Assembly: GCA_964566245.1 (NCBI GenBank)
Contig: CAZMIB010000001.1
Coordinates: 4,777 to 68,776, forward strand
Length of the DNA stretch: 64,000 bases
Direction of reading: 5' to 3'
Origin: an uncultured Elusimicrobia bacterium
GTDB taxonomy: Bacteria > Elusimicrobiota > Elusimicrobia > CAZMIB01
Positions 10,727-63,659 of this stretch are shown one piece after another (positions within the stretch are counted from its first letter, which is position 1; every line of letters starts with the position of its first letter). The notes under the pieces were generated by a model. The model did no database searches and was not told where the DNA came from. It was given only the letters and a program-made list of their open reading frames with translations. The position numbers and the translations under genes are program-made.

Positions 10727-10756
10727 CCCGTCGATTTTAGCAGTTTGTCTTTTGTC

Positions 10757-41945: not shown

Positions 41946-41990
41946 AGAACTACTCAGTACGCTGAGTAAATTTACTCAGCGTACTGAGTA
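41946..41990. promoter_or_regulatory. AT-rich inverted-repeat pair (TACTCAGTACGCTGAGTAA ATT TACTCAGCGTACTGAGTAAAAAA) immediately upstream of the HxlR-family gene. Candidate operator, or a bidirectional terminator.
   Basis: Direct read: the two 19-mers are exact reverse complements of each other, and each is internally near-palindromic. Confidence 0.45.
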
Positions 41991-42363: not shown

Positions 42364-42370
42364 TCCAATA

Positions 42371-42865: not shown

Positions 42866-42897
42866 CGTAATCGTGCAACGACCCGTTGCACGATTAC
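42866..42897. terminator. Perfect 14-bp-stem hairpin GTAATCGTGCAACG-ACC-CGTTGCACGATTAC immediately after the stop of the 42371 gene
   Basis: Direct read. No strong T-tract follows, so it could be a terminator or a protein-binding palindrome. Confidence 0.45.
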
Positions 42898-43157
42898 CTC
42901 GTCTTGAACATTGCCCTGCTGGGAGTTTATATATAGTCTTGGCTGCCGAAGGGGAATTCCTCGTCGAGAGCTTACATATAGTCTACATATAGTTTGGTAA
43001 ACTCATCCCGGCTGTTTGCCCAATTCTGACACCTACCGTGTCAGAGCTTTGGGAGAATCGTAAAGGGCTCACCAAGGGCTCAAAGGGCTCACCGAGATAC
43101 CCGAGAAAAGCCTCCTGACTCTCCAACCCAAGATCTCGGCGCGCAATACCCCGCTGA

Positions 43158-47823: not shown

Positions 47824-48192
47824 TTGAGCATATTTGCTAGACTTGAACTTCCTGTGCCCAGAAAATGTTCCGTGCCTATCGAGATTACGTCCGAAGACCG
47901 GGCCGAGCTATTGATTTTGCGACGAACCTCGCCTAAAAAACGGAATTGGGTCCGTGCCGACATCATTTTGCGTGCCGCCAAAGGCCAGAGCAACTATAGG
48001 ATCGCCAAGCAGCTCGGCCTCAGCCGCAACACCGTGCAGCATTGGCGCTATCGCTTCGCGCGGGAGAGGCTGGCCGGCTTGATGACTCGGCCGATCCCGG
48101 GCCGACCGAAAAGGATCGCCGAGGTTCCGTCGGATAACGGTTCTTTCCGGGTCGCGCGGATTCAGCCCCCAGGGACAGCCCATGAGTTCTAA
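47824..48192 (+). mobile_element. IS630-family transposase N-terminal (HTH) fragment; the catalytic DDE part is missing
   Basis: ...RADIILRAAKGQSNYRIAKQLGLSRNTVQHWRYRFARERLAGLMTRPIPGRPKR matches IS630/Tc1-type transposase HTH domains. Only ~120 aa remain before the frame ends. Confidence 0.6.
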
Positions 48193-48660
48193 GAAGGCGA
48201 GGCGGGTCCGCGGTCGTTCGAGGGAAGATGCCGCATTTCCCGTCGCCTTGCCATCGTCAGACATGCCGCGCGGCTACCCGGAAATGCTCTCCGCCCTTAA
48301 GGAACGGATCGGGCATGAGAGGCAACGCGTCGTATTCGCCGCCAACACCGCCATGATCGTCCTGTACTGGGACATCGGCCGCATGATCCGCCAGCACCAG
48401 ACCCAGAAGGGCTGGGGCTCGAAGGTAGTCGACCGGCTCTCTCAGGACCTCCGTAACGCCTATCCCGACATGAAGGGATTTTCGCCGCGAAATCTCAACT
48501 ACATGCTGTCCTTCGCGGCCGCCTGGCCCGACGCTTCAATTTTGCAACGGGTCGTTGCAAAATTGCCTTGGCGACAGAATATCGCTCTGCTTGAACGACT
48601 TGACGACGAGAAAACGCGCCTTTGGTACGCCCAGGAGACCCTGCGAAACGGCTGGTCCCA
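48182..48660 (+). pseudogene. N-terminal fragment of a YhcG/DUF1016-family (PDDEXK nuclease-associated) protein, a truncated paralog of the intact gene at 59529
   Basis: ...NTAMIVLYWDIGRMIRQHQTQKGWGSKVVDRLSQDLRNAYPDMKGFSPRNLNYMLSFAAAWPD...KTRLWYAQETLRNGWS parallels VALVMRNWLIGRHIVEYEQKG...RLIPKLAEAF...GFSLSNLKLMRQFFLLYP in the 59529 protein. The frame then breaks. Confidence 0.5.
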
Positions 48661-49245
48661 GCCGATCCGCGTTATCCTCCACTCGCGCTCCGAGAGGCTC
48701 TCGCCAACGCCTTCTGCCACCGGGACTACTCCATTGGCGGCGGCTCCGTTGGCGTAGCGATCTACGATGACCGCTTGGAGATCAGCTCATCAGGCTCTCT
48801 GCACTTCGGCCTTGCGGTCCAGGACCTATACAAGCCGCATGAGTCCTTGCCGTGGAATCCGATTGTCGCCGATGTCTTTTATAGGCGCGGCATCATCGAG
48901 ACATGGGGTCGCGGCACGATCAAGATGGCCGAGATGATGGGCCTTGCTGGCCTTCCGCGACCGGAAATTGAGGAGATCTCGGGAGCGATCATTGTCCGTT
49001 TCCGCGCGAGCCGTTATCAGCCGCCGACCCGGATCGGCCACGACCTTACGGATAGGCAGCGCAAAATTCTCGATGTGCTTGCTTCCTCGGGGGCTCTTCG
49101 CCTGGGCGAGATCTTGCCCCTGCTTAAAGCCGGCGCCACGACGAGAGCTTTGCGCGAGGACCTGTATCTGCTTCGGCGGTTCAAGCTCGTTGACTTTTCA
49201 GGCCGAACCAGCGGCGCGCGTTGGCGTTTGAAGAGGGGAAGCTGA
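48622..49245 (+). pseudogene. C-terminal fragment of an AlbA_2/HATPase_c_4 protein, a truncated paralog of 44492..45874
   Basis: LREALANAFCHRDYSIGGGSVGVAIYDDRLEISSSGSL aligns with LREAVTNAICHRDYSGTRDSEVRLYDHEVMIWNDGDL. There is no N-terminal AlbA part. Confidence 0.5.
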
Positions 49246-49377
49246 GCCAGTTATGGCTAATTCTGTCCAATCCTGGCTAATTCTGGCCAATCTTGCGAAT
49301 TGTGATTATAATTTAAGCAGAATTATGGGGTGTTTTTAAGCCATGGGGTTGTATCCAGAGTTTCCTGTCTCGCCCTA

Positions 49378-49530
49378 CGCGCCGCTGATGGGCAGACCAG
49401 CTACATGATCGCCAAGCGGCTCAGGCTCAGTCGCAACACCGTGCAGCACTGGCGTTACCGGTTCGCGCGAGAAAGTTTGGCCGGCTTGATGACTCGGCCG
49501 ATCCCGGGCCGACCTAAAAGGACAGTTATG
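49378..49530 (+). mobile_element. Second, shorter IS630 transposase HTH fragment. It is a direct repeat of 48001-48120 at about 85-90% nucleotide identity.
   Basis: IAKRLRLSRNTVQHWRYRFARESLAGLMTRPIPGRPKR. The nucleotide alignment with the first fragment was read directly. Confidence 0.55.
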
Positions 49531-49636
49531 GAAACTCGCCCGGAACATAGCTCAACAATGGCCGATGCAAGCCAGGCATGAGACCGTCGACGCCGGGCCA
49601 ATCGGGCAACCGGGGTTGCCCAATTCGACGAAGCCC

Positions 49637-52552
49637 ATGAGCACCCCTTTTCATTCGAAATATTACGCGCACGAGTTGACCAAGCGGTGCTCCTCCGACA
49701 GCTTGGAGAAGCTCTCGCAGTCCCTCAACAACGCCACCATCGACTTGAACCCGCATCAAGTGGACGCGGCGCTGTTCGCCTTCAAGTCGCCGCTTTCGCG
49801 CGGCGCGCTTCTCGCGGATGAGGTCGGCCTCGGCAAGACGATCGAGGCGGGCTTGATCATGAGCCAGCTCTGGGCCGAAGGCAAGAGGCGAATGCTTTGC
49901 ATCATGCCGGCGGCGCTACGCCAGCAATGGGAGCGGGAGCTGGCCGAGAAATTCTTCATCGACTCCCTCATCCTGGAGTCGGGCAGTTACAAATCACTTC
50001 AAGCCCAGGGTGTTGCCAACCCCTTCGAACAGAAGAACCGGGTGGTCCTGTGCTCCTTCCAGTTCGCGCGACGAGAGGCCGCCGCCATTCAGCGGACTCA
50101 TTGGGACTTGGTGGTGATGGACGAGGCGCACCGCCTGCGCAACGTCTATAAGAGCGACAATAAGATCGCGCGCGCTATCCGGGACGCTGTCGGCGCGCGG
50201 CCGAAGATCCTGCTCACCGCGACGCCCCTTCAAAACTCCCTGATGGAGCTCTACGGCCTCATCAGCTTCATCGATCCACACCTGTTCGGCAATGCGGAGT
50301 CGTTCCGGGATCAATTCGCCAAGCGCCTCGTCAATGGCCGGGGCGACGAGTTCTCCGACTTGAAGCGGCGCATCCAGCCGGTTTGCATGCGCACGCTGAG
50401 GCGGCAGGTGTCCGAGTATGTCCGGTACACCGACAGGCGGTCCCATACCCAGGACTTCACTCCCAGCGACCAGGAGTGGGAGCTTTATGAGTCCGTATCG
50501 GCCTATCTTCAGCGCCCGCAATCCTACGCGCTCCCGGCCAGCCAACGGGCCCTTATCACCCTCGTGCTCCGCAAGATATTGGCTTCGTCGTCCTTCGCCA
50601 TCGGCGACACCCTGGGCACCCTTATCAAGAGGCTCGAAGCGAAGGAGAAAAGTTTGGCCCCGGCGGAGGGCGACACCGCCGCCGCTCTTGCTTCGGAATA
50701 TGAATCCCTCGCCGATACGAAAGAGGAGTGGGACGAAGCATCGGCGGACACTTCTTTTCCAGGCGGCGAGGCCGCTGCCAATCCGGCCGACGCCGAGCGG
50801 GAGGCAATCCGCAAGGAGTTGGAGGACCTCAAGAACTACAAGAAGCTCGCGGAGTCGATCACTCGCAATGAGAAGGGCGCCGCCCTCCTTACCGCGCTTA
50901 AGACGGGCTTGGCCTGGGCAGAGAAGCTGGGGGCCCGGCGCAAGGCCCTCATCTTCACCGAGTCGCGCCGGACCCAAGCCTACCTCAAGGAACTTCTCGC
51001 GGCCAACGGCTATGCCGGACAGTTGGTGACCTTCAACGGAACCAACACCGATCCCGACTCCCATCGGATTTACAAGGAATGGCTGGCTCGTCACGCGGGT
51101 CAGGACTGCGTGACCGGCGCCCCGAGCGCCGACACCCGCTCCGCGCTCGTTGAGGAATTCCGCGACCGCGCGGCCATCATGATCGCCACCGAGTCCGCGG
51201 CGGAAGGCATCAACCTCCAGTTTTGCAGCCTGGTCGTCAACTATGACCTTCCTTGGAACCCGCAGCGCATCGAGCAGCGCATTGGCCGTTGCCACCGTTA
51301 CGGCCAGCAGCACGACGTTGTCGTCATCAACTTCGTCAACCGCAAGAACGCGGCCGACAAGCGAGTCTTCGAGCTGCTCTCGCAGAAGTTCAAGCTTTTC
51401 GAGGGCATCTTCGGAGCCTCGGACCAAGTGCTCGGCGCCTTGGAGTCCGGCGTGGACTTCGAGAAGCGCGTCAACGACATCTACCAATCCTGCCGCACGA
51501 CGGCGGAGATCGATGCCGCCTTCGACCGGCTTCAGCAAGAATTGGAATTGCAGATTGAGTCCCGTTTGGAAACCGCGAAGAGCCAGCTCCTGGAGCATTT
51601 TGACGTAGATGTTCAGCAGCGGCTGAGACTCAGCCAGGACGGCAAGAATCGGCAGAGAAGCAGATTCCAGCACCTCCTGTGGTGGTTCGCGAAGGGAGAG
51701 CTGCGCGATTGCGCGGAGTTTGCCTCGGACGAGGCGATGGAATTCACCCTCAAGAGCGTGCCAGCCGAAGTCGAGGGAGACGGCATCAAAACCGGATCCT
51801 ACGCCGTCATCCCCGACAGCATGCCGGAGGGCGCCCATCACTTCCGCGTCGGCCATCCGCTGGCGGAACGCCTGATTGCTGCCGCTCGGCGACGGCCACT
51901 TGAGCCGCAAACCGTTCGATTCGACTACGACCGGCTGAGAAAGGTAACGCCTGTCGAGACCCTGCAAGGCCTTTCAGGCTGGCTGCGGCTCCACCTCGTT
52001 ACGCTGGACTCGCTCGAGCCGGAAGATCGCCTCGTGTTCTCCGGGCTGCGCGACGATGGCCAGCCAATGTCCGAGGAGGCCTGCCGGCGGCTCTTCGACT
52101 TCGGGGGGGAAGCGCTTGGCGATGCCGCGGTGCCGGACGAGGTCGCGCGCAGGCTCGACGCGGGCGTCGAGGCCGGCGTCAAGTCGCTGATGGAGGACGC
52201 CCAATCGCGCAACCGTGATTTCTTCGACTCGGAGATCGAGAAGCTGGAGAACTGGGCCGCCGACCTTAAGGACGGCCTCGAGTCCGAGCTGAAGGAGCTT
52301 CAGCGCGAGATCGCCGCCCTCAAACGTGAGTTCCGGCAGGCCGTGGACCTGCAGACCAAGGTCGATCTTCAGCGCAAGGTCGCCGAGTTGGAGCGCAAGC
52401 GCAGCGACAAGCGAAAGGGCATCTTCGAGGCACAGGACCGCATCGACAGCCAAAAGGACGAGGTCCTCTCGAAGGTGGAGCTACGTCTCAAGCTCGACAT
52501 CAAGAAAGAGCCGCTCTTCACGATCCGCTGGCAGGTGGGGGCGAAGGCATGA
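49637..52552 (+). CDS. SNF2-family DNA helicase/translocase
   Basis: Motif I ADEVGLGKTIEAG; motif II VVMDEAHRLRN; LLTATPLQNSLMELYGL; C-terminal helicase domain ...GINLQFCSLVVNYDLPWNPQRIEQRIGRCHRYGQ. Start set at ATG 49637 (MSTPFHSKYY), downstream of the IS fragment. Confidence 0.8.
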   Translation: MSTPFHSKYYAHELTKRCSSDSLEKLSQSLNNATIDLNPHQVDAALFAFKSPLSRGALLADEVGLGKTIEAGLIMSQLWAEGKRRMLCIMPAALRQQWERELAEKFFIDSLILESGSYKSLQAQGVANPFEQKNRVVLCSFQFARREAAAIQRTHWDLVVMDEAHRLRNVYKSDNKIARAIRDAVGARPKILLTATPLQNSLMELYGLISFIDPHLFGNAESFRDQFAKRLVNGRGDEFSDLKRRIQPVCMRTLRRQVSEYVRYTDRRSHTQDFTPSDQEWELYESVSAYLQRPQSYALPASQRALITLVLRKILASSSFAIGDTLGTLIKRLEAKEKSLAPAEGDTAAALASEYESLADTKEEWDEASADTSFPGGEAAANPADAEREAIRKELEDLKNYKKLAESITRNEKGAALLTALKTGLAWAEKLGARRKALIFTESRRTQAYLKELLAANGYAGQLVTFNGTNTDPDSHRIYKEWLARHAGQDCVTGAPSADTRSALVEEFRDRAAIMIATESAAEGINLQFCSLVVNYDLPWNPQRIEQRIGRCHRYGQQHDVVVINFVNRKNAADKRVFELLSQKFKLFEGIFGASDQVLGALESGVDFEKRVNDIYQSCRTTAEIDAAFDRLQQELELQIESRLETAKSQLLEHFDVDVQQRLRLSQDGKNRQRSRFQHLLWWFAKGELRDCAEFASDEAMEFTLKSVPAEVEGDGIKTGSYAVIPDSMPEGAHHFRVGHPLAERLIAAARRRPLEPQTVRFDYDRLRKVTPVETLQGLSGWLRLHLVTLDSLEPEDRLVFSGLRDDGQPMSEEACRRLFDFGGEALGDAAVPDEVARRLDAGVEAGVKSLMEDAQSRNRDFFDSEIEKLENWAADLKDGLESELKELQREIAALKREFRQAVDLQTKVDLQRKVAELERKRSDKRKGIFEAQDRIDSQKDEVLSKVELRLKLDIKKEPLFTIRWQVGAKA

Positions 52553-52743
52553 CGCAAGCGGACCAGACCCCGGATTCAGTCCTGACCGAAGAGGTCATCA
52601 AGAGCCTGCGAAAGGAGATGCTGCTCCCCGAGAAGCAGTTGGACGCTCTTCGGACAAAGATTTCGTCCGGAAAGATGAGGGCCGAAGATTGGCAGGTGAT
52701 GATCGAGCTGGCGATGGACGCGGAGGCCAAGAAGGATGCCTAG
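52549..52743 (+). CDS. Small helical protein (64 aa), translationally coupled between the SNF2 helicase and the SMC-like ATPase
   Basis: ATGA overlap with the SNF2 stop; its own stop overlaps the next start. Composition is all helical. Low individual confidence. Confidence 0.4.
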   Translation: MTQADQTPDSVLTEEVIKSLRKEMLLPEKQLDALRTKISSGKMRAEDWQVMIELAMDAEAKKDA

Positions 52744-55078
52744 ACGCATCGAAAAGCTCTCCTTGGCCGGCTTTCGGGGCGCGTCCAATAGCGTGGAGAT
52801 CCCATTCGACCCCGACAAGCCGATCACGATGATCTTCGGTGAGAACGGGACCGGCAAGTCGTCCATCATCGATGCCATCGATTTCGTGTGCAACAAGCAA
52901 TACGGCTCCGTCGCGGAGCGAAGCGGCACCAAGCCGCGCGAGCACATCGTCGCCTTGAAATCGGAGGCCAAGGACTTGCGCGTCTTGCTCCAGCACGGAG
53001 GCTCCTCCTGGACCGGCACGCTTGAGAAGGGTACGCCTTCGATCGCCGGGGCAGGGGCGCCTCCGCGTGCCCGAATCCTGCGTCGTGGGCAGATCCAGAA
53101 GGTGATCAACGCCCCCGCCGGGGAGCGGTATAAAGAACTTCAGGACTTCATCGTTCCTCCGAAGGTCGAGACCGCCGAGAATGCCCTGCGGGATTGCGTC
53201 AAATCTCTCAAGGACGAGCTGGATCGGGCGGTTTTCGCCAAGACCCATGCCGAAGAGCAACTGCGAGGTTTTTGGACTGGGGTCGGGAGTCCCGGCAAGG
53301 ACTGCTTTTCCTGGGCGAAGGAGCGCGCCAAAGAGAACGAGGCCGGCCTGACGGCCATCGCCGCCGAGGCAAAAGCTCTGCTGTCGGCCTTGGACAAGGC
53401 CCAGGCGGCCGTGGATTCGTGGACCGCAGCCTTCAAGGCCCATGCGGACGCCGCCGGTAAATTGGAGAAGGCGCAAGCGGCGCTGGCCGCGGCCGAAGCG
53501 GCGCAGGAGTTGGATTTGGTCGAGTTGCTGACCGCGGCCCAGGGGTACCTGCCAAAGGCCGCAAAGGCGGATGAATGCCCGCTGTGCGAGCGGCCGGGAA
53601 TTTCCTTGGAAGTCTTGCTCAGGCGCATCGCCGAGCGTCTTGCGGCCATGAACCGTTTGGTCCTGTTGAAGAAGGAGTTGGACGCGGCGAGCAAACTGGC
53701 CGAGAAGGCGGGGTCCCTTTTGGAGTATGGACGAGGCGGCCTGGTGGCGGCGGCGCGCGAATTGGCGAAGGCCCTGGAGAAGTCCAAACTCAGCGAGGTC
53801 GCCGCGCTGAAGTTGGTTTGGACGCACTATCCCGCTATGGGGGCCGCGCCGGAGCCTGAGATCAGCGATGCCGTGCTGAAGGAGGCTCAGAAGCTCCAGC
53901 TTTCCTCTAAAGCGTGCCATGCAGGCGTGAAGGCGAGGCAGGAAGCCGCTTCTCGCGAGGCCAGCCAGCTCGGCATGATCCAGCGGGCCCTGGCCGCGGT
54001 CGGGGAGAACACGAAACACGCCGAAAGCGTCAGTGGCCGCCTCACGCGCGGGGTGGCCAACCGCCGAACCGGTAAACAGCGCGGGAGGAGGTTGGTTGAG
54101 GGCATTTTAGGCGCCATCTCGGGCGAGGTCGGGGACCTCTGCGAGAAGATCCATCCCGGCGAAGGGATCAAAACCCGCCTTTACCTAAACCCCAAGACGA
54201 GAGGCTCGCTGGAGTGCGACGGCGAGTTCGAGGGCGTCAAAGGTCTCCCGCCGCAAGCTTACTACAGCGAGTCCCACCTGGACTCGCTCGGAGTATGCAT
54301 CTTCCTGGCGCTGACCAAGAAGTTCGGGGGCAAGGATCTGATAGTCGTGCTGGATGACGTCGTGACCTCGGTCGATGCGCCTCACATGGGCCGTTTTCTC
54401 GACCTCCTGCTGGACCAGGCCGAGCACTTCGGGGAGATCGTTGTGGCGACCCACTACCGGCCTTGGCTTGAGCGGGTCCGGCACGGCAAGGGGCCGACCG
54501 CGAACATCCACCTTCTCCACCTTTCGCGCTGGTCCTTGGCGCATGGCATCAGGCACGGCATAGGCAAGCTGGCGGTCCAGGAACTGAAGGACGCCGTGGC
54601 GGCGGCGCCGCTTGACCGCCAAGCCGTCGCATCGAAGGCCGGTATTTTCTTGGAAAGCCTCCTCGACCAGTTGGCGCTTCTCTATCAGTGCCGCCTTCCT
54701 CGGCGGCCCGAGCCGGAGTATACGCTGGGCGAGCTTCTCGACTGCTTCGGAAAGAAGCTCCGCCCCGCGATGAAATGCGAGACGTACGCCAAGGGGCAGC
54801 CGCCAAAGGAGATTCCGCTTAAGCCCCTGCTGGACGCCCTTGCCGGGACAGAGTGGATTCGCAATCAGGTCGGCTGCCACTGCAATATCCACGGCTACGA
54901 CGTGCCGGACAGGGACGTGCAGGAATTCGGCGAGAAAACGATCGCGCTTGCCGAGGCCCTAATCTGCGCGGTCTGCGGCTCGTTGCCCCTCCGAGACAAG
55001 ACAGGGACGTATTGGCAATGTCACTGTGTGGGAGAATTGGGCCTGCGGTTGATTCCTTTGGAGAATCCGGATCGGTGA
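52736..55078 (+). CDS. SMC/Rad50/SbcC-like ABC ATPase (780 aa) with a central Ala/Glu/Lys-rich coiled coil and a C-terminal Cys cluster (CHCNIH...CAVCGS...CHC)
   Basis: N-terminus IEKLSLAGFRGASNSVEIPFDPDKPITMIFGENGTGKSSIIDAIDFV (Walker A); C-terminus DLIVVLDDVVTSVDAPH (Walker B/D-loop). Confidence 0.7.
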   Translation: MPRRIEKLSLAGFRGASNSVEIPFDPDKPITMIFGENGTGKSSIIDAIDFVCNKQYGSVAERSGTKPREHIVALKSEAKDLRVLLQHGGSSWTGTLEKGTPSIAGAGAPPRARILRRGQIQKVINAPAGERYKELQDFIVPPKVETAENALRDCVKSLKDELDRAVFAKTHAEEQLRGFWTGVGSPGKDCFSWAKERAKENEAGLTAIAAEAKALLSALDKAQAAVDSWTAAFKAHADAAGKLEKAQAALAAAEAAQELDLVELLTAAQGYLPKAAKADECPLCERPGISLEVLLRRIAERLAAMNRLVLLKKELDAASKLAEKAGSLLEYGRGGLVAAARELAKALEKSKLSEVAALKLVWTHYPAMGAAPEPEISDAVLKEAQKLQLSSKACHAGVKARQEAASREASQLGMIQRALAAVGENTKHAESVSGRLTRGVANRRTGKQRGRRLVEGILGAISGEVGDLCEKIHPGEGIKTRLYLNPKTRGSLECDGEFEGVKGLPPQAYYSESHLDSLGVCIFLALTKKFGGKDLIVVLDDVVTSVDAPHMGRFLDLLLDQAEHFGEIVVATHYRPWLERVRHGKGPTANIHLLHLSRWSLAHGIRHGIGKLAVQELKDAVAAAPLDRQAVASKAGIFLESLLDQLALLYQCRLPRRPEPEYTLGELLDCFGKKLRPAMKCETYAKGQPPKEIPLKPLLDALAGTEWIRNQVGCHCNIHGYDVPDRDVQEFGEKTIALAEALICAVCGSLPLRDKTGTYWQCHCVGELGLRLIPLENPDR

Positions 55079-55082
55079 ATTC

Positions 55083-57059
55083 ATGATCATCAAATCCATT
55101 GCCGTTAAGAACTTCAGGGCGATTCTTGAAGAGTCACTCGACTGCGCGGACTTGACCGTGCTCGTCGGCCGAAACGGTGCTGGGAAATCATCTTTTCTGC
55201 GGGCATTGGAGATGTTCTATGAATCAGCCGCCGCGGCGTCTGTCGACGATTTCTATGCGGAGGATGTGAGTAAGGAGATCGAGATTGCGGTCACGTTCGA
55301 CAGGCTGGAAGCCGCCGAAAAGGAACTCTTTGCGCCCTACTTGGACGCGGAGCGCCTGACTATTTCGCGAGTTTTCTCGTTAGCGGCAGGCAAGAAGTCG
55401 GGGACCTACCACGGATCGCGGCTACAAAACCCCGACTTCTTCCCCATCAGGATGGCCGGAGGCAAGAAGGAAGTCGTCGCCAAGTATAAAGAGGTACGCG
55501 AGCAACCAGCCTACCAGGCCCTGCCAGTTGCTCGTGCCGCTGACGAAGCGGAACAGGCCCTGAAGGCCTGGGAAGCCGCAAATGCGGACGCGTGTACCCG
55601 GCAGCGCGACGATGGACAGTTCTTTGGATTCACAGGCGTAGGGCAAGGCTATCTCGGAAGGCATACCCGCTTCATCAGGATTCCGGCCGTCCGTGATGCT
55701 TCGACCGATGCGATGGAGGGCCGCGGGTCGTGTGTCACCGAAATCATGGACCTTGTGGTCCGGAGCGCCCTAGCAAGGAAGGCCGAGTTCACGGCACTAA
55801 AAGATGATGCTCAAAGAAAGTACCGCGAGATAATGGACCCCGGCCGCCTCACTGAGCTGTCCTCCCTGCAAACGAAACTCTCTGAAACGCTGGCATACTA
55901 CGCCCCTGAAGCCGCTGTTTCCCTGGATTGGGCGAAGCTCGCCGACCTTGAGTTCCCACTGCCAAAGGCAGAAATCAAGTTGAATGAGGACGGCTACAAG
56001 TCGGCCGTCCGGCGGACTGGCCATGGCCTGCAACGCGCATTCATCCTGACCATGCTTCAGCACCTAGTCGCGGCAAAGGGCGGCGATGGCACCGCTCAGT
56101 CCGAGGCGGGACCGGCCGCCGGCGCTCCGGCTGAGCCAGACCAGAGGCTCCCAAGTCTTGTTCTCGCCATCGAGGAACCTGAGCTGTATCAGCACCCGAG
56201 CCGCCAGCGGCACCTGGCTTCGATCCTCCTTCGACTTGCATCCGGGACGATTCCCGGCGTCGCAAAGAAGACTCAGGTGATGTATACCACGCACTCGCCC
56301 CTCTTTGTTGGCTTGGATCGATTTGAGCAGATCCGATTGCTCAGGAAGGCGGACAATACCGCAGGGAAGCCGCGAATCACAAAGGTAACGAAAGCCGCGC
56401 TGGATGTCGTCGCCGAAGAGATATGGATTGCAGGCGGCCAGCAGGGGCCGCGGTTCACGGCCGAGACTCTAAAGCCTAGGCTCCAAGCGGTGATGACCCC
56501 TTGGGTCAACGAAGGTTTCTTCGCCGACGTTGCCGTGCTAGTAGAAGGCGAGGACGACCGCGCCGCGATTCTCGGGGTCGCCCTGTCCTTGGGCCATAAC
56601 TTCGACAGCGATGGAATCGCGGTCATCCCCTGCTCGGGCAAGAACAACCTCGACCGGCCGTTCGTAATCTTCCGGCGTCTTGGCGTTCCAGCCTATCTCG
56701 TTTGGGACGGCGACCATGGGGAGGGAGGCGCACGGCCCGACGACAATCGGAGACTCTTGAAGCTCATTGGACAGGCCGAGGAAGACTGGCCGGCCACGGT
56801 GGCCGGGAGCCATGCATGCTTCAAATCGAAGTTGGAGGATACGCTTGCGGATGAGATCGGGCGGGAACTCTTCGACCGGCTGTTAACCGAAGCTCAGACC
56901 ACCTTCGGAATTCCGCGCAAGAACCACGCCACGAAGAATCCAATGGTAATCCAGCAGGTCATCCAAAAGGCGGGCGCGCAGGGTAAGGAAAGCCATACGA
57001 TGAAGAGCATCGTAGGCAGGATAGTCGCCCTGAAGCCAAATCGGGTGGCGGTCAACTGA
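55083..57059 (+). CDS. OLD-family (overcoming-lysogenization-defect, GajA-like) ATPase-Toprim nuclease
   Basis: N-terminus IKSIAVKNFRAILEES...LTVLVGRNGAGKSSFLRALE; LVLAIEEPELYQHP...YTTHSP (AAA_15-type Walker B/H-loop); C-terminal Toprim-like VAVLVEGEDDRAAILGV...IPCSGKNNL...LVWDGDHG. Confidence 0.75.
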   Translation: MIIKSIAVKNFRAILEESLDCADLTVLVGRNGAGKSSFLRALEMFYESAAAASVDDFYAEDVSKEIEIAVTFDRLEAAEKELFAPYLDAERLTISRVFSLAAGKKSGTYHGSRLQNPDFFPIRMAGGKKEVVAKYKEVREQPAYQALPVARAADEAEQALKAWEAANADACTRQRDDGQFFGFTGVGQGYLGRHTRFIRIPAVRDASTDAMEGRGSCVTEIMDLVVRSALARKAEFTALKDDAQRKYREIMDPGRLTELSSLQTKLSETLAYYAPEAAVSLDWAKLADLEFPLPKAEIKLNEDGYKSAVRRTGHGLQRAFILTMLQHLVAAKGGDGTAQSEAGPAAGAPAEPDQRLPSLVLAIEEPELYQHPSRQRHLASILLRLASGTIPGVAKKTQVMYTTHSPLFVGLDRFEQIRLLRKADNTAGKPRITKVTKAALDVVAEEIWIAGGQQGPRFTAETLKPRLQAVMTPWVNEGFFADVAVLVEGEDDRAAILGVALSLGHNFDSDGIAVIPCSGKNNLDRPFVIFRRLGVPAYLVWDGDHGEGGARPDDNRRLLKLIGQAEEDWPATVAGSHACFKSKLEDTLADEIGRELFDRLLTEAQTTFGIPRKNHATKNPMVIQQVIQKAGAQGKESHTMKSIVGRIVALKPNRVAVN

Positions 57060-57064
57060 CAGGG

Positions 57065-57847
57065 ATGGACGAACCAAACTTTTCCGAAGGCCAGTTGCAG
57101 CAGCTTACGAACACCGAGATATTCAACTTGGTGCGGGGCACCCATCCTCTTGGGATTCCTGTCGTGATCCCTCCGTGGTTGGAGGACATGTGGGGATGGG
57201 ATACCGGGTTCTGGCTTCCATGGATTGGGCGGCGTCATCCTGTCCAGCGGGGTTGCAACTTCTTCATCCAGTACAAGCTATCAGCCCGGCATGAGTCCAA
57301 ATACGCGAAGGGCTGGAAGCACTGGCGGCAACCGTTCCTCCGGTTTCACCTCGGATATCGGAGAAAACGGAGGTGGGACTACAGCCAACGAAACGCGCTT
57401 GAGCGCCTTAGCGCCTCCGGTTTTCGCGTCGTGTACGTCACGAATCACGTCCTCGACTCGACCGACCTGTTCAGTCTCGCGGCTGCGGATCGCCTCCTCA
57501 CAGAGCTTCCGGTCCTTCGAGTCTCTCCTGGACTGACGAAGCATGGCTATGTCACCTTCGTCCCAGGCAACCCAAATTTCTGGCTGCACAGCAGGAGGGA
57601 GTCCGCAGAAGGGACGCACCTTAAGTCGTTGATTGAGTCGCTGGAGTCATCTTTGCTGGCAGATGATCTCCCGAGGTTGGTCAAGGTCGTCAAATCGTTC
57701 GAGGAAGAAGCAGGCATACGAGAGAACGGCTACAGCGCAGCGCTGCAACGATTTCCCGAAGGAAGCGCCGGAGACAAGGCCGCGCAAGCGATGCTCGTTT
57801 GGATATGTCTGCGCCGCTATTTCGGCGTGTTCTGGTGGAGGTTCTAA
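57065..57847 (+). CDS. Hypothetical protein (260 aa), Trp/Arg-rich, tightly coupled between the OLD-family gene and the methyltransferase
   Basis: ORF track. 5-nt gap upstream, 2-nt gap downstream. No family recognised. Confidence 0.45.
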   Translation: MDEPNFSEGQLQQLTNTEIFNLVRGTHPLGIPVVIPPWLEDMWGWDTGFWLPWIGRRHPVQRGCNFFIQYKLSARHESKYAKGWKHWRQPFLRFHLGYRRKRRWDYSQRNALERLSASGFRVVYVTNHVLDSTDLFSLAAADRLLTELPVLRVSPGLTKHGYVTFVPGNPNFWLHSRRESAEGTHLKSLIESLESSLLADDLPRLVKVVKSFEEEAGIRENGYSAALQRFPEGSAGDKAAQAMLVWICLRRYFGVFWWRF

Positions 57848-57849
57848 GC

Positions 57850-59532
57850 GTGAAGACAAAGCTCGAGCTGCAGTGGATCGGCAAGGAGAATAGGCCCAAG
57901 CTGGAGCCACGAATTCTCATCGAGGACCCGGCCAAGTCCTACCATGGGGCTCATCGCGTCACGGACAAAGACATTTTCGACAACTGCTTGATTTTCGGTG
58001 ATAACCTCCTCGCCCTCAAGGCTCTGGAGCAGGAGTTCGCGGGCAAGGTCCAGTGCATTTACATCGATCCACCTTATAACACCGGATCAGCCTTCGAGCA
58101 TTATGACGACGGAATTGAGCACTCTCTATGGCTCTCGCTCATGCGGGATCGGCTGGAGATCCTCCGCGCCCTTCTATCACCGGGCGGCTGCATCTTTGTG
58201 CAGATAGATGACCGCGAGCAAGCCTATCTTAAAGTCGTCATGGATGAGGTTCTCGGACGACGAAATCATTTCGGAACGATAGTCTGGCAGAAGAGGATTT
58301 CGCCAGATTCCGACAGTAAATTTGTATCTCCGACTCACGATTACATCCTTGGCTATGCAAAAGACGTCGAACATGCGGCCTTTTATCGGTTGCCGCGAAC
58401 AGATGTTCAGAATGCTCGATACGAAAACCCCGATAATGACCCCAGAGGACCGTGGACGAGCAGTGACCTTACAAGAAGGGAGTACCGGGAGCATGACTAC
58501 TACCCGATAGTCCTGCCTTCGGGCCGCAAGGTAAAACCAGCAGCCGGAAGGAGTTGGGGGGTCCCCAAGGACTCCCTTGAGAACCTTAGAAAGGATAACC
58601 GCATCTGGTTCGGTCCTGATGGCGATGCAATGCCGCGCCGCAAGCGATTCCTATCTGAAGTCCGAGAAGGAATTGTTCCAACGACTTGGTGGACCGAAGC
58701 CGAGACGGCTGGGAATCAGGACGGAAAGCGCGAGCTCAAGGGCTTATTTCCTGACCAGCCCAATGTTTTTGCCACACCCAAACCCGAAGGACTAATAAAG
58801 AGGATTCTTGAAATAGGGTCCCTTCCGGGCGACCTTGTTCTCGATTCCTTCGCCGGCTCCGGTACCACCGGCGCCGTGGCCCACAAGATGGGCCGCCGCT
58901 GGATCATGGTGGAATTGGGCGAGCATTGCCACACCCACATCATCCCCCGGCTCAAGAAAGTCATCGACGGCAAGGACCCCGGCGGGATCACCGAGGCCGT
59001 CGGGTGGAAGGGCGGCGGCGGTTTCCGCTACTATCGGCTGGCCCCTTCGCTCCTTGAGAAGGACCAGTTCGGCAACTGGGTCATCAACAAGAAGTACGAT
59101 GCCGTCATGCTGGCCGAGGCCATCTGCAAGCTCGAAGGCTTCGTCTACCGGCCGAGCGACACCCTCTACTGGCAGCACGGCCATTCGACCGAGAAGGACT
59201 TCATCTACGTCACCACGCAAACCCTCTCGCGCGAGCAGCTTCAGAAACTCTCGGACGAGGTCGGCGAAGACCGGACCCTCTTGGTCATGTGCGGCGCCTT
59301 CCGGGTCAAGGACCTGGACGAGTTCCCCAACCTGACGGTCAAGAAGATCCCGAAGGCGGTCCTCTCGCGTTGCGAGTGGGGCCACGACGACTATAGCCTG
59401 GAGATCAAGAATCTGCCAATGAAACCCGAGGAGGAGTCGGCGGCGCCGGTCGGCCCCAAGCCGCGTTCCAAATCGGAGCGCCGGGATCAGGCCCTGCTGT
59501 TCGACCTCTCCGGAGCCGAGGAGGGCGCGTGA
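57850..59532 (+). CDS. mod: Type III restriction-modification Mod subunit (beta-class N6-adenine/N4-cytosine DNA methyltransferase)
   Basis: KLELQWIGKE N-terminus; motif IV IYIDPPYNTG precedes motif I VLDSFAGSGTTGAVA (beta-class order). Start taken at GTG 57850. Confidence 0.75.
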   Translation: MKTKLELQWIGKENRPKLEPRILIEDPAKSYHGAHRVTDKDIFDNCLIFGDNLLALKALEQEFAGKVQCIYIDPPYNTGSAFEHYDDGIEHSLWLSLMRDRLEILRALLSPGGCIFVQIDDREQAYLKVVMDEVLGRRNHFGTIVWQKRISPDSDSKFVSPTHDYILGYAKDVEHAAFYRLPRTDVQNARYENPDNDPRGPWTSSDLTRREYREHDYYPIVLPSGRKVKPAAGRSWGVPKDSLENLRKDNRIWFGPDGDAMPRRKRFLSEVREGIVPTTWWTEAETAGNQDGKRELKGLFPDQPNVFATPKPEGLIKRILEIGSLPGDLVLDSFAGSGTTGAVAHKMGRRWIMVELGEHCHTHIIPRLKKVIDGKDPGGITEAVGWKGGGGFRYYRLAPSLLEKDQFGNWVINKKYDAVMLAEAICKLEGFVYRPSDTLYWQHGHSTEKDFIYVTTQTLSREQLQKLSDEVGEDRTLLVMCGAFRVKDLDEFPNLTVKKIPKAVLSRCEWGHDDYSLEIKNLPMKPEEESAAPVGPKPRSKSERRDQALLFDLSGAEEGA

Positions 59533-60572
59533 TGAATTTCAAGCAATTGGTTTCCCAGATTGAAGAAACCCATGGCGCCCTCCAGCGGCGGGCGGTGGCC
59601 GTCGTGGACGTGGCGCTTGTCATGCGGAATTGGCTGATCGGTCGCCATATCGTCGAGTACGAGCAGAAGGGGGCCGATCGCGCGGCTTATGGCGAGCGGC
59701 TGATACCCAAATTGGCCGAGGCCTTTGCCGGGCGAACCCAAGGGTTCTCGTTGTCCAATTTAAAACTGATGCGGCAATTTTTCCTGCTGTATCCGCAGAA
59801 AGGCCAGACAGTGTCTGGCTTTTTGGATGCCGACGGTCCACGGGGCAAGATGGGCCGGACACCCTCTGGCCAAAGGGACTCGTTACCCCTTACTTGGTCT
59901 CATTACGTGTTCTTGATGCAAATAACGAACGCGCAAGAGAGGCAGTTTTACGAAATAGAGGCGGTCAAGGAAAACTGGGCGATCCGTGAGTTGAAAAGAC
60001 AATACAACTCATCGCTCTACGAACGGCTGTCCCTCAGTCGCGACAAGAAGCAGGTGCGTTCCCTGGCGAGAAAGGGACATATCATCGCATCCGCGCAAGA
60101 CGCGGTGAAAGACCCCTATGTGCTGGAGTTCCTTGGATTGCGGGAGGCGGTGGCCTACTCCGAGAGCGACTTGGAATCAGCCATCATCGACAAACTGGAG
60201 CACTTCCTTCTTGAGCTAGGCAAGGGATTCTTGTTCGAAGCGCGTCAAAAACGGATCACGTTCAATGAAGAGCATTATTTTGTGGACTTGGTTTTCTACA
60301 ACCGCCTTCTCCGTTGTTACGTCGTCATCGATCTGAAGATCGGGAAGCTGACCCACCAGGACCTGGGCCAGCTCCAAATGTACGTGAACTATTTCGACCG
60401 GCGTGTAAAAACGAAGGATGAGGAGCCCACTATCGGCATCCTATTGTGCAAGACAAAAAGCGACGCTTTGGTCGAGATGGCCTTGCCGAAAGGCAACCGC
60501 ACGATTTTCGCGAGTCGTTATCAACTCTACTTGCCCAGTAAAGAGGAGTTGCGCAGGCAGATCAAGGGTTAG
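59529..60572 (+). CDS. YhcG/DUF1016-family PDDEXK nuclease-like protein, inserted between mod and res
   Basis: Full-length relative of the fragment at 48182. The C-terminal part has a PD-(D/E)xK-like FVDLVFYNRLLRCYVVIDLKIGK. Confidence 0.7.
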   Translation: MMNFKQLVSQIEETHGALQRRAVAVVDVALVMRNWLIGRHIVEYEQKGADRAAYGERLIPKLAEAFAGRTQGFSLSNLKLMRQFFLLYPQKGQTVSGFLDADGPRGKMGRTPSGQRDSLPLTWSHYVFLMQITNAQERQFYEIEAVKENWAIRELKRQYNSSLYERLSLSRDKKQVRSLARKGHIIASAQDAVKDPYVLEFLGLREAVAYSESDLESAIIDKLEHFLLELGKGFLFEARQKRITFNEEHYFVDLVFYNRLLRCYVVIDLKIGKLTHQDLGQLQMYVNYFDRRVKTKDEEPTIGILLCKTKSDALVEMALPKGNRTIFASRYQLYLPSKEELRRQIKG

Positions 60573-60688
60573 ATTGTGGAACGATCCGCCATTTTTTCTT
60601 ATCGAAGGACAATTCTCTACGCGGTGCGTAGAGAATTGTCGATTTCCGAGCCGCTGCCGCGGAAATCGGTCCAGAGAGGATCCGCTTT

Positions 60689-63445
60689 ATGAACCCGCAC
60701 GTCAACGCCATCGCCAACCGGCTCAGCCTTCGCCCTCCGCAAAGGACATCGCTCGACATCCTCGCGCGCGTGGCCGACATCCTTTCGTTGGAGAAGGGCA
60801 CGGACGCTGCCCAGGCGCTCAAGGCCATCCAGGCCGAGTTTCCGACCGTCGCGGACTTCGAGAGGGACTTCCCGTCGTTTTGCTTCGCCCTGGCCACCGG
60901 GGTCGGAAAGACGCGTCTCATGGGAGCGTTCATCGCTTACCTTTATAAGAAGGAGGGCATGAGGCACTTCTTCGTGCTGGCTCCGAACCTGACCATCTAC
61001 AACAAGCTCATCGCGGACTTCACCCCAAACACCCCGAAGTACGTCTTTCAGGGCATTGCCGAGTTCGCCGTGGAGCCGCCCTGGATCGTAACCGGGGACA
61101 ACTACGAGGACGGGCGCGGCGTCCGAGGCAGAGAGCTGTTCGATACCGCGGTCCACATCAACATCTTCAACATCAGCAAGATCACAAGCACCGAGACCAT
61201 CGGAGGTGCGACAAGGACGAACGTTCCAAGGTTTCGCCGGCTTCAAGAGTACATCGGCCAAAGCTATTTCGACTATCTATCGGGGTTGGATGACCTGGTC
61301 GTGATCATGGATGAGTCGCACCGCTACCGGGCCTCGGCCGGAATGCGGGCGATCAACGAGCTTAAGCCGGTCCTAGGGCTTGAGCTGACGGCAACGCCGC
61401 AGGTGGAGCGCGGCGGCGGCAGAGACGATTTCCGCAACGTGATCTACGGCTACCCCCTTTCCGACGCCATGAAGGACGGTTTCGTAAAGGAGCCGGCTGT
61501 CGCCACGCGGCAGAATTTCGATATCCGCAACTATGATGAAGCCCGTCTGGAGCGCCTGAAGCTTGAGGATGGCGTCCGCATCCATGAGAACACGAAAGTA
61601 GAGCTTGAGGTCTACGCCCGCGAGAACGGGGCGGCTATCGTCAAGCCGTTCGTGCTCGTTATCGCCAAGGATACGGAGCACGCCAACGCCCTGTTCAAGC
61701 TGATCGAGGACGACACGTTTTTCGAAGGCCGCTACAAGGGCAAGGTGGTCACGGTCCATTCGAACCTGCGCGGCGAGGAAAAGGATGAGACCATCGAGCA
61801 GCTCATTACGGTGGAGAAGGCCGATAACCCGACTGAAATCGTCATCCACGTAAACATGCTCAAGGAGGGGTGGGACGTCACCAATCTTTTCACCATCGTT
61901 CCGCTTCGCGCGGCCAACTCGAAGACCTTGGTCGAGCAATCCATCGGTCGCGGACTGCGCCTCCCCTACGGCAAACGCACCGGCGTTGGCTCCGTGGATC
62001 GACTGACTATCGTCTCTCACGATAAATTTCAAGAGATCATCGATTACGCGAACAGCCCGGAGTCCATTATCAAGGGTGGGCTCAAGATCGTCGGGATTCC
62101 AGAGGGGAGGTCCCAGGTCGTCGTATCACAGCCGGCGATCTACGGATTGCTTTCGGAAACTACGGGCCTGCCCGTCGGCGGCGCCAGCTTCATGTCGCAG
62201 GAAAAGCTGGTCTTCAAGACTCCCAAGGAGCAGGAGGCCGCGAAGGCCACCATCGAGATTATCCGGCGCGAATATGAGCGCCTGCCGAGCTCCGCGGACT
62301 TGGCCAAGCCGGAAATCCAGGAAGAAATCGCTGAGAAGGTCAAAGCTGCCATCGCCCCGGCGCAAGGCGAGCTTGAAGGGGTCGCCGAGAAGATCAACGT
62401 GGCGAAAATCGTCGCGAAGACGATTGAGCTTCGGAATGAATTTTCCATCGATATTCCTAGAATCACGCTTCAGCCGGTCGGAGAAGCGACGCGCGGGTTC
62501 AAGGAATTCAAGTTGGACCTCTCCGGCGTCCGCCTACAGCCGGTGGATAATGAGATCCTCATTCAGCATCTCCAGAGCATGGAGCAGCATCGCCTTATGA
62601 GCAGGGATGGGCTCGTCCCTGAGTCGAAGCCCGAGGACTACCTCATTCGCGGGCTCATCGATTTTAACGACGTGTGCTACGACGATCATGCGGCGCTGCT
62701 CTATGAGCTTGCCGGCCAAGTCGTGGCCCATCTGCGCTCCTATCTGAGAAATCCGGATGAGGTTCTGAACGTCCTTCAATACCATCAACAAGCCCTGGTG
62801 AACCTGACCCACGTACAAATGCAGGACCACTACGAGGAGAAGGCTGCCGCCTACGAAGTGCATGTCAGCAAGGGATTCACGACCTTGCGAGACAATGCTT
62901 ACTCGCTCCCTGCCGATGAATCCGCAAGGGATTTCCGAGTTCCGGTGACCGAGCGGCATGACATCCGCAGGATGCTCTTCAGCGGCTTTAAGAAGTGCCT
63001 CTACCGCGTTCAGAAATTCGATTCGGATCCCGAGAGGCGGTTCGCGGTGGTGCTAGAGAACGATAAAGAGGTTCGCAAGTGGTTCCGGCCCAGCAAGGGT
63101 GATCTGTTGATCCACTACAGCAGCGAAAGCTCTTATGAGGCGGACTTTGTCGTTGAAGCCACGGACGCGAAGTATATCTGTGAGGTCAAGAGCACGGCTG
63201 AACTAGCGGACGTCGAGGTCCTTGCGAAGGCCCGTGCTGCGGTGGAATGGTGCAGACACGCGACGGAGCACGCCAAGGCCCACGGTGGGAAGCCCTGGTC
63301 GTATCTCCTCATTCCGCACGATGTCGTCGCTGACAACAAGAACCTCGCGGGTTTGGCCGCGGCGCACAGTTGTCGAATAGAGCCCACAAGTGAGATGACC
63401 AGCAGTGTTGGCCCCAAATTCGTGAAAGCGGTAAAGAAAAAGTAG
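60689..63445 (+). CDS. res: Type III restriction enzyme Res subunit (helicase plus C-terminal PD-(D/E)xK endonuclease)
   Basis: FALATGVGKTRLMGAF (motif I), VVIMDESHRY (DEAH box), C-terminus ...ADFVVEATDAKYICEVKS. Confidence 0.8.
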   Translation: MNPHVNAIANRLSLRPPQRTSLDILARVADILSLEKGTDAAQALKAIQAEFPTVADFERDFPSFCFALATGVGKTRLMGAFIAYLYKKEGMRHFFVLAPNLTIYNKLIADFTPNTPKYVFQGIAEFAVEPPWIVTGDNYEDGRGVRGRELFDTAVHINIFNISKITSTETIGGATRTNVPRFRRLQEYIGQSYFDYLSGLDDLVVIMDESHRYRASAGMRAINELKPVLGLELTATPQVERGGGRDDFRNVIYGYPLSDAMKDGFVKEPAVATRQNFDIRNYDEARLERLKLEDGVRIHENTKVELEVYARENGAAIVKPFVLVIAKDTEHANALFKLIEDDTFFEGRYKGKVVTVHSNLRGEEKDETIEQLITVEKADNPTEIVIHVNMLKEGWDVTNLFTIVPLRAANSKTLVEQSIGRGLRLPYGKRTGVGSVDRLTIVSHDKFQEIIDYANSPESIIKGGLKIVGIPEGRSQVVVSQPAIYGLLSETTGLPVGGASFMSQEKLVFKTPKEQEAAKATIEIIRREYERLPSSADLAKPEIQEEIAEKVKAAIAPAQGELEGVAEKINVAKIVAKTIELRNEFSIDIPRITLQPVGEATRGFKEFKLDLSGVRLQPVDNEILIQHLQSMEQHRLMSRDGLVPESKPEDYLIRGLIDFNDVCYDDHAALLYELAGQVVAHLRSYLRNPDEVLNVLQYHQQALVNLTHVQMQDHYEEKAAAYEVHVSKGFTTLRDNAYSLPADESARDFRVPVTERHDIRRMLFSGFKKCLYRVQKFDSDPERRFAVVLENDKEVRKWFRPSKGDLLIHYSSESSYEADFVVEATDAKYICEVKSTAELADVEVLAKARAAVEWCRHATEHAKAHGGKPWSYLLIPHDVVADNKNLAGLAAAHSCRIEPTSEMTSSVGPKFVKAVKKK

Positions 63446-63515
63446 CACGCTAATGCAACCGCTGATATCCGAGTTCTCATATGGCTTCACCCGCACTGCC
63501 AAAGGATGCCATCGA

Positions 63516-63659
63516 TGAGCGACGAGATCGACAACCTCACGATGGAAGTGGCGCGGCTGCGCCAAGAGAACGAGTCATTGCGGCAACGGCTCGGCAAGTT
63601 CATCGCGCGCGAGGCGTCGTTCATCCAGAGTGGTACTATTGAGGCAGGCCATGATTAAA
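63516..63659 (+). CDS. Small coiled-coil ORF (47 aa), MSDEIDNLTMEVARLRQENESLRQRLGKF...
   Basis: Read from the sequence. Not in the track because it is shorter than 60 aa. Weak call. Confidence 0.25.

Follow-up and report, generated by a model that had tools for sequence, protein, structure and literature searches.

A recurrent Type III restriction-modification core with an SNF2 translocase and a Rad50-like ATPase carries embedded defence genes in an uncultured Elusimicrobia bacterium

A window of 64,000 nucleotides (nt) was analysed from an uncultured Elusimicrobia bacterium (assembly GCA_964566245.1, contig CAZMIB010000001.1, positions 4,777 to 68,776, forward strand). It contains a block of eight tightly packed open reading frames (ORFs) between positions 49637 and 63445, all on the + strand, as already described in an initial annotation made from the sequence alone. 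Two layers could be distinguished in this block. Five genes, coding for an SNF2-family translocase, a protein of about 65 amino acids (aa), a Rad50-like ATPase and the Mod and Res proteins of a Type III restriction-modification (R-M) system, form a conserved unit, the gene order of which recurs in dozens of unrelated genomes and is thus beyond chance. The remaining three, coding for an OLD nuclease, a 260-aa protein and a YhcG nuclease, are unrelated, independently mobile genes carried as interchangeable embedded cargo outside this core, and the eight-gene arrangement of the window is a strain-specific loading of it. The genes are, in order:

49637–52552, + strand: core gene 1, SNF2-family translocase (ORF open from 49565, likely start at 49637)
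52549–52743, + strand: core gene 2, helical protein of 64 aa, overlapping both neighbours and conserved beside the ATPase in about 70 loci
52736–55078, + strand: core gene 3, Rad50/SMC-like ABC ATPase of 780 aa
55083–57059, + strand: cargo 1 (slot between ATPase and Mod), Class 1-type OLD ATPase-TOPRIM nuclease of 658 aa
57065–57847, + strand: cargo 2 (slot between ATPase and Mod), 260-aa protein of an unannotated family
57850–59532, + strand: core gene 4, Type III Mod methyltransferase (GTG start)
59529–60572, + strand: cargo 3 (slot between Mod and Res), YhcG/DUF1016 PD-(D/E)xK nuclease, PADLOC candidate PDC-S02
60689–63445, + strand: core gene 5, Type III Res

Recurrence of the core was assessed in one genome per species (185,579 species representatives), in which 78 loci of the ATPase were found in many phyla. 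The eight proteins of the window were mapped onto all related loci (83) by tblastn, and SNF2, ATPase, Mod and Res were collinear and co-directional in 43 of them. Where the ATPase was full-length and enough flanking sequence was present (40 loci), SNF2 was located upstream and a Type III Mod and Res downstream, all co-directional, in 36 cases. All three partners were recognized by tblastn in 34 of these, while the other two, L011 and L016, contain SNF2 and a divergent Type III pair with a Res carrying PF19778. The exceptions were three decayed loci (L049, L052 and L053) and one Hymenobacter-type context (L064). In L011, L016 and also L045, the trio of SNF2, small protein and ATPase is paired with a different Type III lineage. 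No intact trio without Type III genes was found among the related loci, L049 and L053 being decayed, and Res was present in every intact locus. The hosts belong to Elusimicrobiota, Nitrospira, Bacteroidota, Bdellovibrionales, Synergistia, Treponema, Chloroflexota, Verrucomicrobiota, Planctomycetota, Acidobacteriota and Alpha-, Beta- and Gammaproteobacteria, a spread of more than ten phyla. The earlier proposal of a defence locus is borne out, and part of the block is a conserved, co-inherited unit.

A shorter form of the core was found on plasmids of Salmonella and Roseomonas, where SNF2, Mod and Res occur without the small gene and the ATPase, with identities to the window of 43% for SNF2 (over its full length), 51–55% for Mod and 48–50% for Res. 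The existence of this three-gene form indicates that the pair of small protein and ATPase is an addition present in one branch, and it is SNF2 that constantly accompanies this clade of Type III systems. The Salmonella plasmids are conjugative IncFIB plasmids with floR and tet(A), in which an IS256 transposase and an Abi-family gene occupy the slot between SNF2 and Mod. On one of these (L090, NZ_CP100694.1) a helix-turn-helix (HTH) gene, SNF2, Mod and Res were located at 1679–11694, and the arrangement was observed in 15 Salmonella records.

The distances between the core genes are bimodal, which reveals where cargo is carried. SNF2 and ATPase are separated by about 200 nt (the small gene) or by 1–3 kb, ATPase and Mod by 12–80 nt or 0.4–4.8 kb, and Mod and Res by 0–90 nt or 0.5–2.1 kb. 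Neither OLD nor the 260-aa protein was matched in any of the 83 related loci, and the sole other core copy with OLD is L094, from the same strain (99.7% nucleotide identity). In L095 (87% nucleotide identity) OLD is absent at the ATPase junction, and a 269-aa gene (1299–2108; region 1–2299) is located between SNF2, ending at 1296, and the small gene, which makes this junction a fourth insertion point. The slot between ATPase and Mod is empty in L096 (76% nucleotide identity), YhcG is the only cargo of L006 (ATPase identity 76%), and L087 (68% identity) carries the 260-aa gene alone, without OLD, in the same slot as the window. Elsewhere the slots are filled by ORFs of many unrelated families, and those that could be identified are known or candidate defence genes. 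AbiU/AIPR was found as cargo with 10 ORFs in nine loci, and YhcG (PDC-S02) between Mod and Res in the window and in eight other loci. Other slots contain GmrSD (HEC-06), RhuM (PDC-S05), PDC-M28B/C, Schlafen-AlbA_2/HATPase_c_4 proteins, DUF2130, ABC ATPases (one AriA/OLD-like and one NsnB/HEC-03-like) and IetS, the latter with a second gene upstream in the same slot.

These results alter part of the initial annotation. It had joined OLD with SNF2 and the SMC-like protein in one module, a combination present in none of the 78 or more other loci, the same-strain copy excepted; of the order SNF2, small protein, SMC-like protein and OLD, the first three do recur beside Type III R-M and OLD does not. 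The 260-aa gene, likewise counted in the unit, had to be removed from it, since it accompanies the core of L087 in the absence of OLD and also occurs in Type I R-M operons. The insertion of YhcG between Mod and Res was correctly recognized.

The genes of the block are tightly coupled, with all junctions between −8 and +5 nt except for one structured spacer. SNF2 and the small gene share an ATGA overlap, as read from the sequence (52549/52552), and the small gene overlaps the ATPase by 8 nt (52736/52743). The distances are +4 nt between ATPase and OLD (55078/55083), +5 nt between OLD and the 260-aa gene (57059/57065) and +2 nt before Mod, which starts with GTG at 57850. Mod and YhcG overlap with GTGA (59529/59532), and YhcG is separated from Res by the spacer of 116 nt (60573–60688), the sole real intergenic gap of the operon. 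The range of −4 to +5 nt given earlier needs a slight correction for the junction between small gene and ATPase (−8); of the seven genes counted between 49637 and 59532, six end by the latter position and seven by 60572.

The domain assignments SNF2, SMC-like, OLD-TOPRIM, Mod, YhcG and Res were all confirmed by matches in Pfam, PADLOC and NCBIfam, and the catalytic motifs of SNF2, ATPase, Mod and Res are intact. The SNF2 protein probably starts at the ATG at 49637, since its homologues align only from about residue 25 of the long ORF. It contains an SNF2-rel_dom and a Helicase_C domain with the motifs GLGKT, DEAH and QRIGRCHR, followed by about 300 family-specific residues terminating in a coiled coil, and no recognizable fold or family was found for this C-terminal third in profile searches. 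The best family match was DrmD (PADLOC, 4.6e-217), but the NCBIfam model DrmD_b scored 727 bits against a cut-off of 950 and covered the helicase core alone (profile positions of about 21–655 out of 868). Six further members of the family scored 606–722 bits with the same model and likewise matched it in the helicase core alone. The protein is accordingly placed, as judged from its sequence, in a sister clade of the DISARM protein DrmD.

The 64-aa protein of the window belongs to a set of ORFs of about 60–80 aa, seen in about 70 loci, that overlap the 5′ end of the ATPase gene and share the motif TPDxxLAxxIVxxL..LL..KLAxGxhxxEDWRL. The 64-aa protein had no matches in Pfam, PADLOC or NCBIfam. 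An Xis/AlpA-like HTH gene was considered as a sixth core gene and rejected, as it precedes SNF2 in some loci only; in the window, fragments of insertion sequences (IS) are found in its place.

The ATPase has a Walker A motif (GENGTGKS), a signature motif (SESHLD), a Walker B motif (VLDD) and an H-loop (TH). Its ABC head is split by an antiparallel coiled coil of about 330 residues with an invariant CPLC hook (residues 281–284) of the CxxC type at the apex, which is the architecture of Rad50 and SMC proteins. The coiled coil predicted earlier is present in the AlphaFold model (predicted local distance difference test, pLDDT, 86). The C-terminal cysteine cluster is there as well and is conserved only in part, the CPxC motif of the coiled coil being invariant. 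An extra C-terminal domain (residues of about 590–780, positions 54500–55078) contains invariant E640, Y650, R709, G713, H715 and P774, with N710 conserved in 30 of 31 sequences, and profile searches with this domain returned no family and no sequence relative in PDB. Wadjet and Lamassu SMC-like proteins are weaker structural neighbours of the ATPase. The protein is uncommon (some 60 clusters at 90% identity in a set of 5.8 billion proteins), and PADLOC-DB v2 and NCBIfam release 20 contain no model for it beyond the P-loop, nor one for the small protein. A full-length homologue (35% identity) was observed on a plasmid of Hymenobacter monticola (L089, 9001–14793), preceded by an integrase and followed by hypothetical proteins of 642 and 477 aa, which may represent a separate system built on the same ATPase.

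Mod belongs to the N6_N4_Mtase family (PF01555, 1.2e-45; PADLOC MTase_III, 2e-219) with DPPY at residue 73 and FAGSG at residue 334. Res matched PF04851 (ResIII, 4.8e-22) and PADLOC REase_III (6.5e-234), and contains the helicase motifs GVGKT, DESH and QSIGRGLR and a C-terminal nuclease motif D...EVK. Both proteins have the features of Type III R-M, and res is located 3′ of mod with YhcG alone intervening. The Mod of L087 (10790–12550) is 59% identical to that of the window (57850–59532) over residues 2–172 and 81% over residues 311–557, while the middle of about 140 residues fails to align. An exchange of the target-recognition domain would account for this pattern and would give the two enzymes different specificities.

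Among the cargo, OLD consists of AAA_15 (PF13175) and an OLD-like TOPRIM (PF20469), and by this architecture, an ABC ATPase fused to an OLD-type TOPRIM, it is predicted to be a Class 1 OLD protein. Its best matches were PADLOC Old (5.3e-52) and PDB 6P74, the stand-alone Class 1 OLD of Thermus scotoductus (E 3e-25). It had been called GajA-like: the family is right, and the likeness to GajA (models at 3.8e-27) is limited to the N-terminal P-loop. The homologues occur in varied contexts without a conserved neighbour, and the subfamily is large, with more than 3000 clusters at E ≤ 1e-40 compared to about 60 for the ATPase, and more than 120 clusters of 64–71% identity across phyla. A 70%-identical OLD is nested in an Hma-type operon with the order SNF2/NOV_C helicase, RmuC, KTSC, OLD, DUF1156 methylase, PDDEXK_3 and DUF499 ATPase.

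The 260-aa family is small: it forms seven clusters at 90% identity, and 51 of 1.84 billion representatives were matched at E ≤ 1e-30. Homologues were found inside Type I R-M operons, directly after hsdS in two cases and between hsdS and hsdR. Profiles of seven and 52 sequences retrieved no relative in PDB, Pfam or PADLOC, and there was no match in NCBIfam either. One family member matched LmuA/DUF4297 at 0.005, which is too weak for use, and the AlphaFold model obtained from seven sequences was unusable (pLDDT 43). Residues D46, Q69, Q108 and H160 are invariant and E40 and K71 nearly so; the pattern E40...D46...Q69-x-K71 points to a possible PD-(D/E)xK-like core. In L085 (8944–10792), and also in L086, a 46%-identical homologue overlaps the stop of a thymidylate-synthase-like gene, which in L085 is preceded by genes for a 5-hydroxymethyldeoxyuridine DNA kinase (HMUDK_hel) protein and a deoxythymidine monophosphate kinase-like protein. 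The cluster looks like a set of thymidine hypermodification genes in a mobile-element-like region, and the 260-aa family might be related to modified DNA. The third cargo protein, YhcG, contains DUF1016_N and YhcG_C, matched the PDC-S02 model PDLC04807 at 1e-134 and occupies the nested position that characterizes PDC-S02.

Taken as a two-layer composite, the block consists of the five-gene core and its embedded cargo, and the trio most likely extends or reinforces the restriction by Res through DNA topology or access. Such an action on topology or access is suggested by the trio itself, as no nuclease domain was detectable in it by Pfam, PADLOC, NCBIfam and profile searches. In Type III systems as presented by Rao et al. 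(2014), Mod marks the host and Res cuts the unmethylated invader after ATP-triggered sliding and collision. In the window, Mod would mark host sites on one strand, and Mod-Res bound at unmethylated sites of an invader would hydrolyse ATP, slide along the DNA and cut on meeting a second complex. SNF2 would serve as a motor moving along duplex DNA, the Rad50-like ATPase, dimerized through its hook, may act as a clamp or bridge on DNA, perhaps at ends, and the small protein could be an adaptor. The trio would thereby extend or reinforce restriction by Res, the host being spared by the same methyl mark. The cargo genes are co-directional and translationally coupled, and thus ride on the transcript of the host operon, where they would provide independent back-up layers.

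That the core genes form a functional unit is suggested by their fixed order and tight spacing, by the re-pairing of the trio, by the SNF2-Mod-Res plasmids and by the covariation of pairwise identities in 43 systems (rho of 0.68 for SNF2-Res, 0.59 for Mod-Res and 0.51 for ATPase-Res), although these correlations take no account of shared ancestry. Other points also count against the composite with a Res-directed trio. The ATPase family is present on Hymenobacter plasmids (33–35% identity) without SNF2, Mod and Res, and is therefore not strictly bound to Type III systems, and homologues at 22–29% identity are found in mixed contexts. The C-terminal domain of the ATPase or the C-terminal third of SNF2 may hide a nuclease or reader activity. 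Both the link of the trio to Mod-Res and its mechanism are what we infer. As to novelty, full-text literature searches returned no description of a system of SNF2, Rad50-like ATPase and Type III R-M, and the ATPase clade may have a prior one. A bolder version is possible, though doubtful: the trio would turn the Type III enzyme into a mechanistically new restriction machine, in which clamp and translocase capture invader DNA by its ends or by looping and lift the rules of two head-to-head sites and of no free ends. The conserved C-terminal domain of the ATPase would in that case be a new module for catalysis or for the binding of DNA or Res, and the 260-aa protein would found a new single-gene defence family.

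The absence of a detectable nuclease in the trio bears on several alternatives. It could favour the initial proposal that all eight genes are one obligate system, in which OLD is the effector of an SNF2/SMC/OLD module insulated by the Type III methylase: OLD would supply the missing nuclease, and the tight coupling suggests co-translation. This is nevertheless very improbable, as every other core copy and the relatives at 68–87% identity lack OLD and the 260-aa gene, unrelated defence genes occupy the same slots elsewhere, and the same OLD subfamily is nested in an unrelated Hma-type operon. The lack of a nuclease equally speaks against two adjacent systems, a self-sufficient trio beside an ordinary, independent Type III R-M, even though defence systems cluster in islands, the ATPase family occurs without R-M and relatives of Mod-Res occur without the ATPase. 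In dozens of loci across phyla, order and strand are fixed and an unoccupied slot leaves only 12–80 nt between ATPase and Mod; the trio was never found intact without Type III genes, the two candidates being decayed, and has been re-paired with a second Type III lineage; SNF2 stays with Mod-Res even where the ATPase is missing, and SNF2-Res covariation is as high as that of Mod-Res. Two independent systems are therefore considered a poor explanation.

The chief mechanistic rival is a second, Res-independent arm, in which the trio blocks invader DNA in the manner of DISARM or BREX, for instance its replication or circularization, with the mark of Mod as the self label. It draws on the relationship between SNF2 and DrmD, on a make-up of helicase, methylase and ATPase that parallels Hma and BREX, and on SMC-like Wadjet and Lamassu, which act directly on foreign DNA. 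It is held to be unlikely, since neither a reader domain for methylated DNA nor a nuclease could be detected in the trio, and Res, with all motifs intact and present in every intact locus, shows that classical restriction is clearly retained. A function outside defence, as a module for DNA repair or epigenetic regulation with the Rad50-like and SNF2 proteins in chromosome maintenance, would agree with the Rad50-like architecture and with the SbcCD genes beside one distant homologue. A sparse and patchy spread (78 loci in the species representatives), occurrence on plasmids, a low-G+C island with integrases, toxin-antitoxin pairs and IS fragments, slots that hold almost only known defence genes and a core without Mre11/SbcD partner make this extremely improbable.

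Two features of possible regulatory nature accompany the operon:

49284–49312, + strand: promoter-like site (TGGCCA-17-TATAAT), the sole sigma-70-like match upstream of the operon and a consensus match only
60573–60688, + strand: structured spacer left of Res, with a weak terminator-like hairpin (60576–60589) and hairpins of 15 bp and 8 bp

A single promoter-like site was thus located, 5′ of SNF2, in a region where such matches are not more frequent than in shuffled sequence, and no convincing terminator was found within the operon. A tandem direct repeat of 20 nt at 49247–49286 (CCAGTTATGGCTAATTCTGT / CCAATCCTGGCTAATTCTGG) overlaps the −35 box of this site and looks like an operator. The spacer folds strongly (minimum free energy z-score −3.8). 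Its 15-bp hairpin is perfect (GACAATTCTCTACGC/GCGTAGAGAATTGTC), and neither this nor the 8-bp hairpin is followed by a T-run; the spacer could be an insertion scar, an element for RNA stability or processing, or an operator.

The G+C content is about 58% across the block against a background of 68%, and the low-G+C region starts near 45 kb. Integrases, toxin-antitoxin pairs and other defence genes are the neighbours in this island, as they are in the related loci. Two IS630-like HTH_29 fragments form a direct repeat of 145 nt (47971–48115 and 49378–49522, 85% identity); these IS630-like fragments (47824–49581) flank an N-terminal fragment of YhcG (48182–48757) and a HATPase_c_4 fragment (48622–49245). 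The material just 5′ of SNF2 is evidently composed of decayed remnants of the cargo type, and the native 5′ end of the operon may therefore be rearranged. Further upstream, an intact Schlafen-AlbA_2/HATPase_c_4/Fic-like_C gene (44492–45874) and a 483-aa Fic-domain gene (46307–47758) were observed, and the family of the former also fills slots in L009, L020 and L080. Res is followed by a 47-aa coiled-coil ORF (63515–63658) and, from 63651, by a Macro-domain protein (PF01661, 1.2e-20) that extends past the end of the window and may be a DarG-like antitoxin or an ADP-ribose hydrolase. A perfect palindrome of 20 nt (TACTCAGTACGCTGAGTAAA/TTTACTCAGCGTACTGAGTA) is present at 41951–41990, well upstream of the low-G+C island, and adjoins a dip of 1 kb to 53% G+C (42000–43000). 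Rfam and tRNA scans of the window gave no matches.

The operon represents a recurrent, apparently unnamed defence operon, in which a classical Type III R-M is combined with an SNF2 motor and a Rad50-like clamp, and the core is naturally suited to testing the effect of accessory ATPases on restriction. With it, the few operons known to host embedded defence genes gain a Type III-based member, whose three slots can be mined for new systems, the 260-aa family being one candidate. Tight translational coupling is not evidence of one system, which matters for pipelines that deduce systems from operon structure. The three-gene relative on conjugative IncFIB resistance plasmids of Salmonella may affect both plasmid and phage traffic.

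Classical Type III R-M consists of two genes. With EcoP15I and EcoP1I, the core shares an N6_N4 Mod with DPPY, an SF2 helicase-like Res with a C-terminal PD-(D/E)xK-type motif and the order mod-res, but here SNF2, a protein of about 65 aa and the Rad50-like ATPase are conserved upstream in the operon and cargo slots are present between the genes. Class 1 DISARM (DrmD, DrmMI, DrmA, DrmB and DrmC) is likewise a methylase-linked multi-gene system with an SNF2 helicase, whereas methylase and nuclease are a Type III pair here and SNF2 remains below the DrmD_b cut-off. DrmA, DrmB (DUF1998) and the PLD protein DrmC, the absence of which had been noted before, were not found in the eight proteins, the upstream ORFs or the annotated related loci. 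Hma, a DUF499-centred, BREX-related system, is defined by an m5C/DUF1156-type methylase (HmaB) and a DUF499 ATPase (HmaC), without Res (PMC8565338, PMC12839542). It shares the logic of helicase, methylase and ATPase as well as the hosting of embedded defence genes, but the present core differs by a Rad50-like ABC protein as its ATPase and by a methylase and nuclease of Type III, and no Hma model was present among the 25 best PADLOC matches of the ATPase. ARMADA, BRIGADE and TALON are centred on a YprA-family (DrmA-like, DUF1998) helicase (bioRxiv 10.1101/2025.09.15.676423), and no such helicase was found in the block or the upstream ORFs. Assignment of the core to DISARM, Hma or ARMADA/BRIGADE/TALON, and of the cargo OLD to Gabija or PARIS, was rejected on the defining components, in agreement with the earlier statement that the unit fits no named system; the core appears to be unnamed.

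For OLD, the UvrD-like GajB of Gabija is absent from the block and the GajA models are weaker than Old. The AriA model of PARIS fits the ATPase portion (1.7e-39), but the 658-aa protein also contains the TOPRIM as a fusion, and there is no AriB gene. With the Class 1 proteins P2 Old and Thermus scotoductus OLD, it shares the ABC ATPase and the fused OLD-type TOPRIM. Compared with Rad50/SbcC, JetC of Wadjet and LmuB of Lamassu, the core ATPase is without an Mre11/SbcD, kleisin or LmuA partner. No Metallophos (Mre11/SbcD) gene was found in the block of the window or in the conserved core, and SbcCD adjoins one distant homologue only (L070). The coiled coil of SMC proteins is much longer, and the extra conserved C-terminal domain is a feature of the ATPase. 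Embedded defence genes are known in Hma, BREX, DISARM and Type I R-M hosts, according to the available text of Payne et al. (bioRxiv 10.1101/2024.01.29.577857). YhcG (PDC-S02), RhuM (PDC-S05), GmrSD (HEC-06) and PDC-M28 from that text recur as cargo here too, and the hosts it names do not include a Type III-based one with SNF2 and a Rad50-like ATPase. While gene embedding itself is already known, the core can be described as a methylase-centred restriction system assisted by a helicase and an ATPase.

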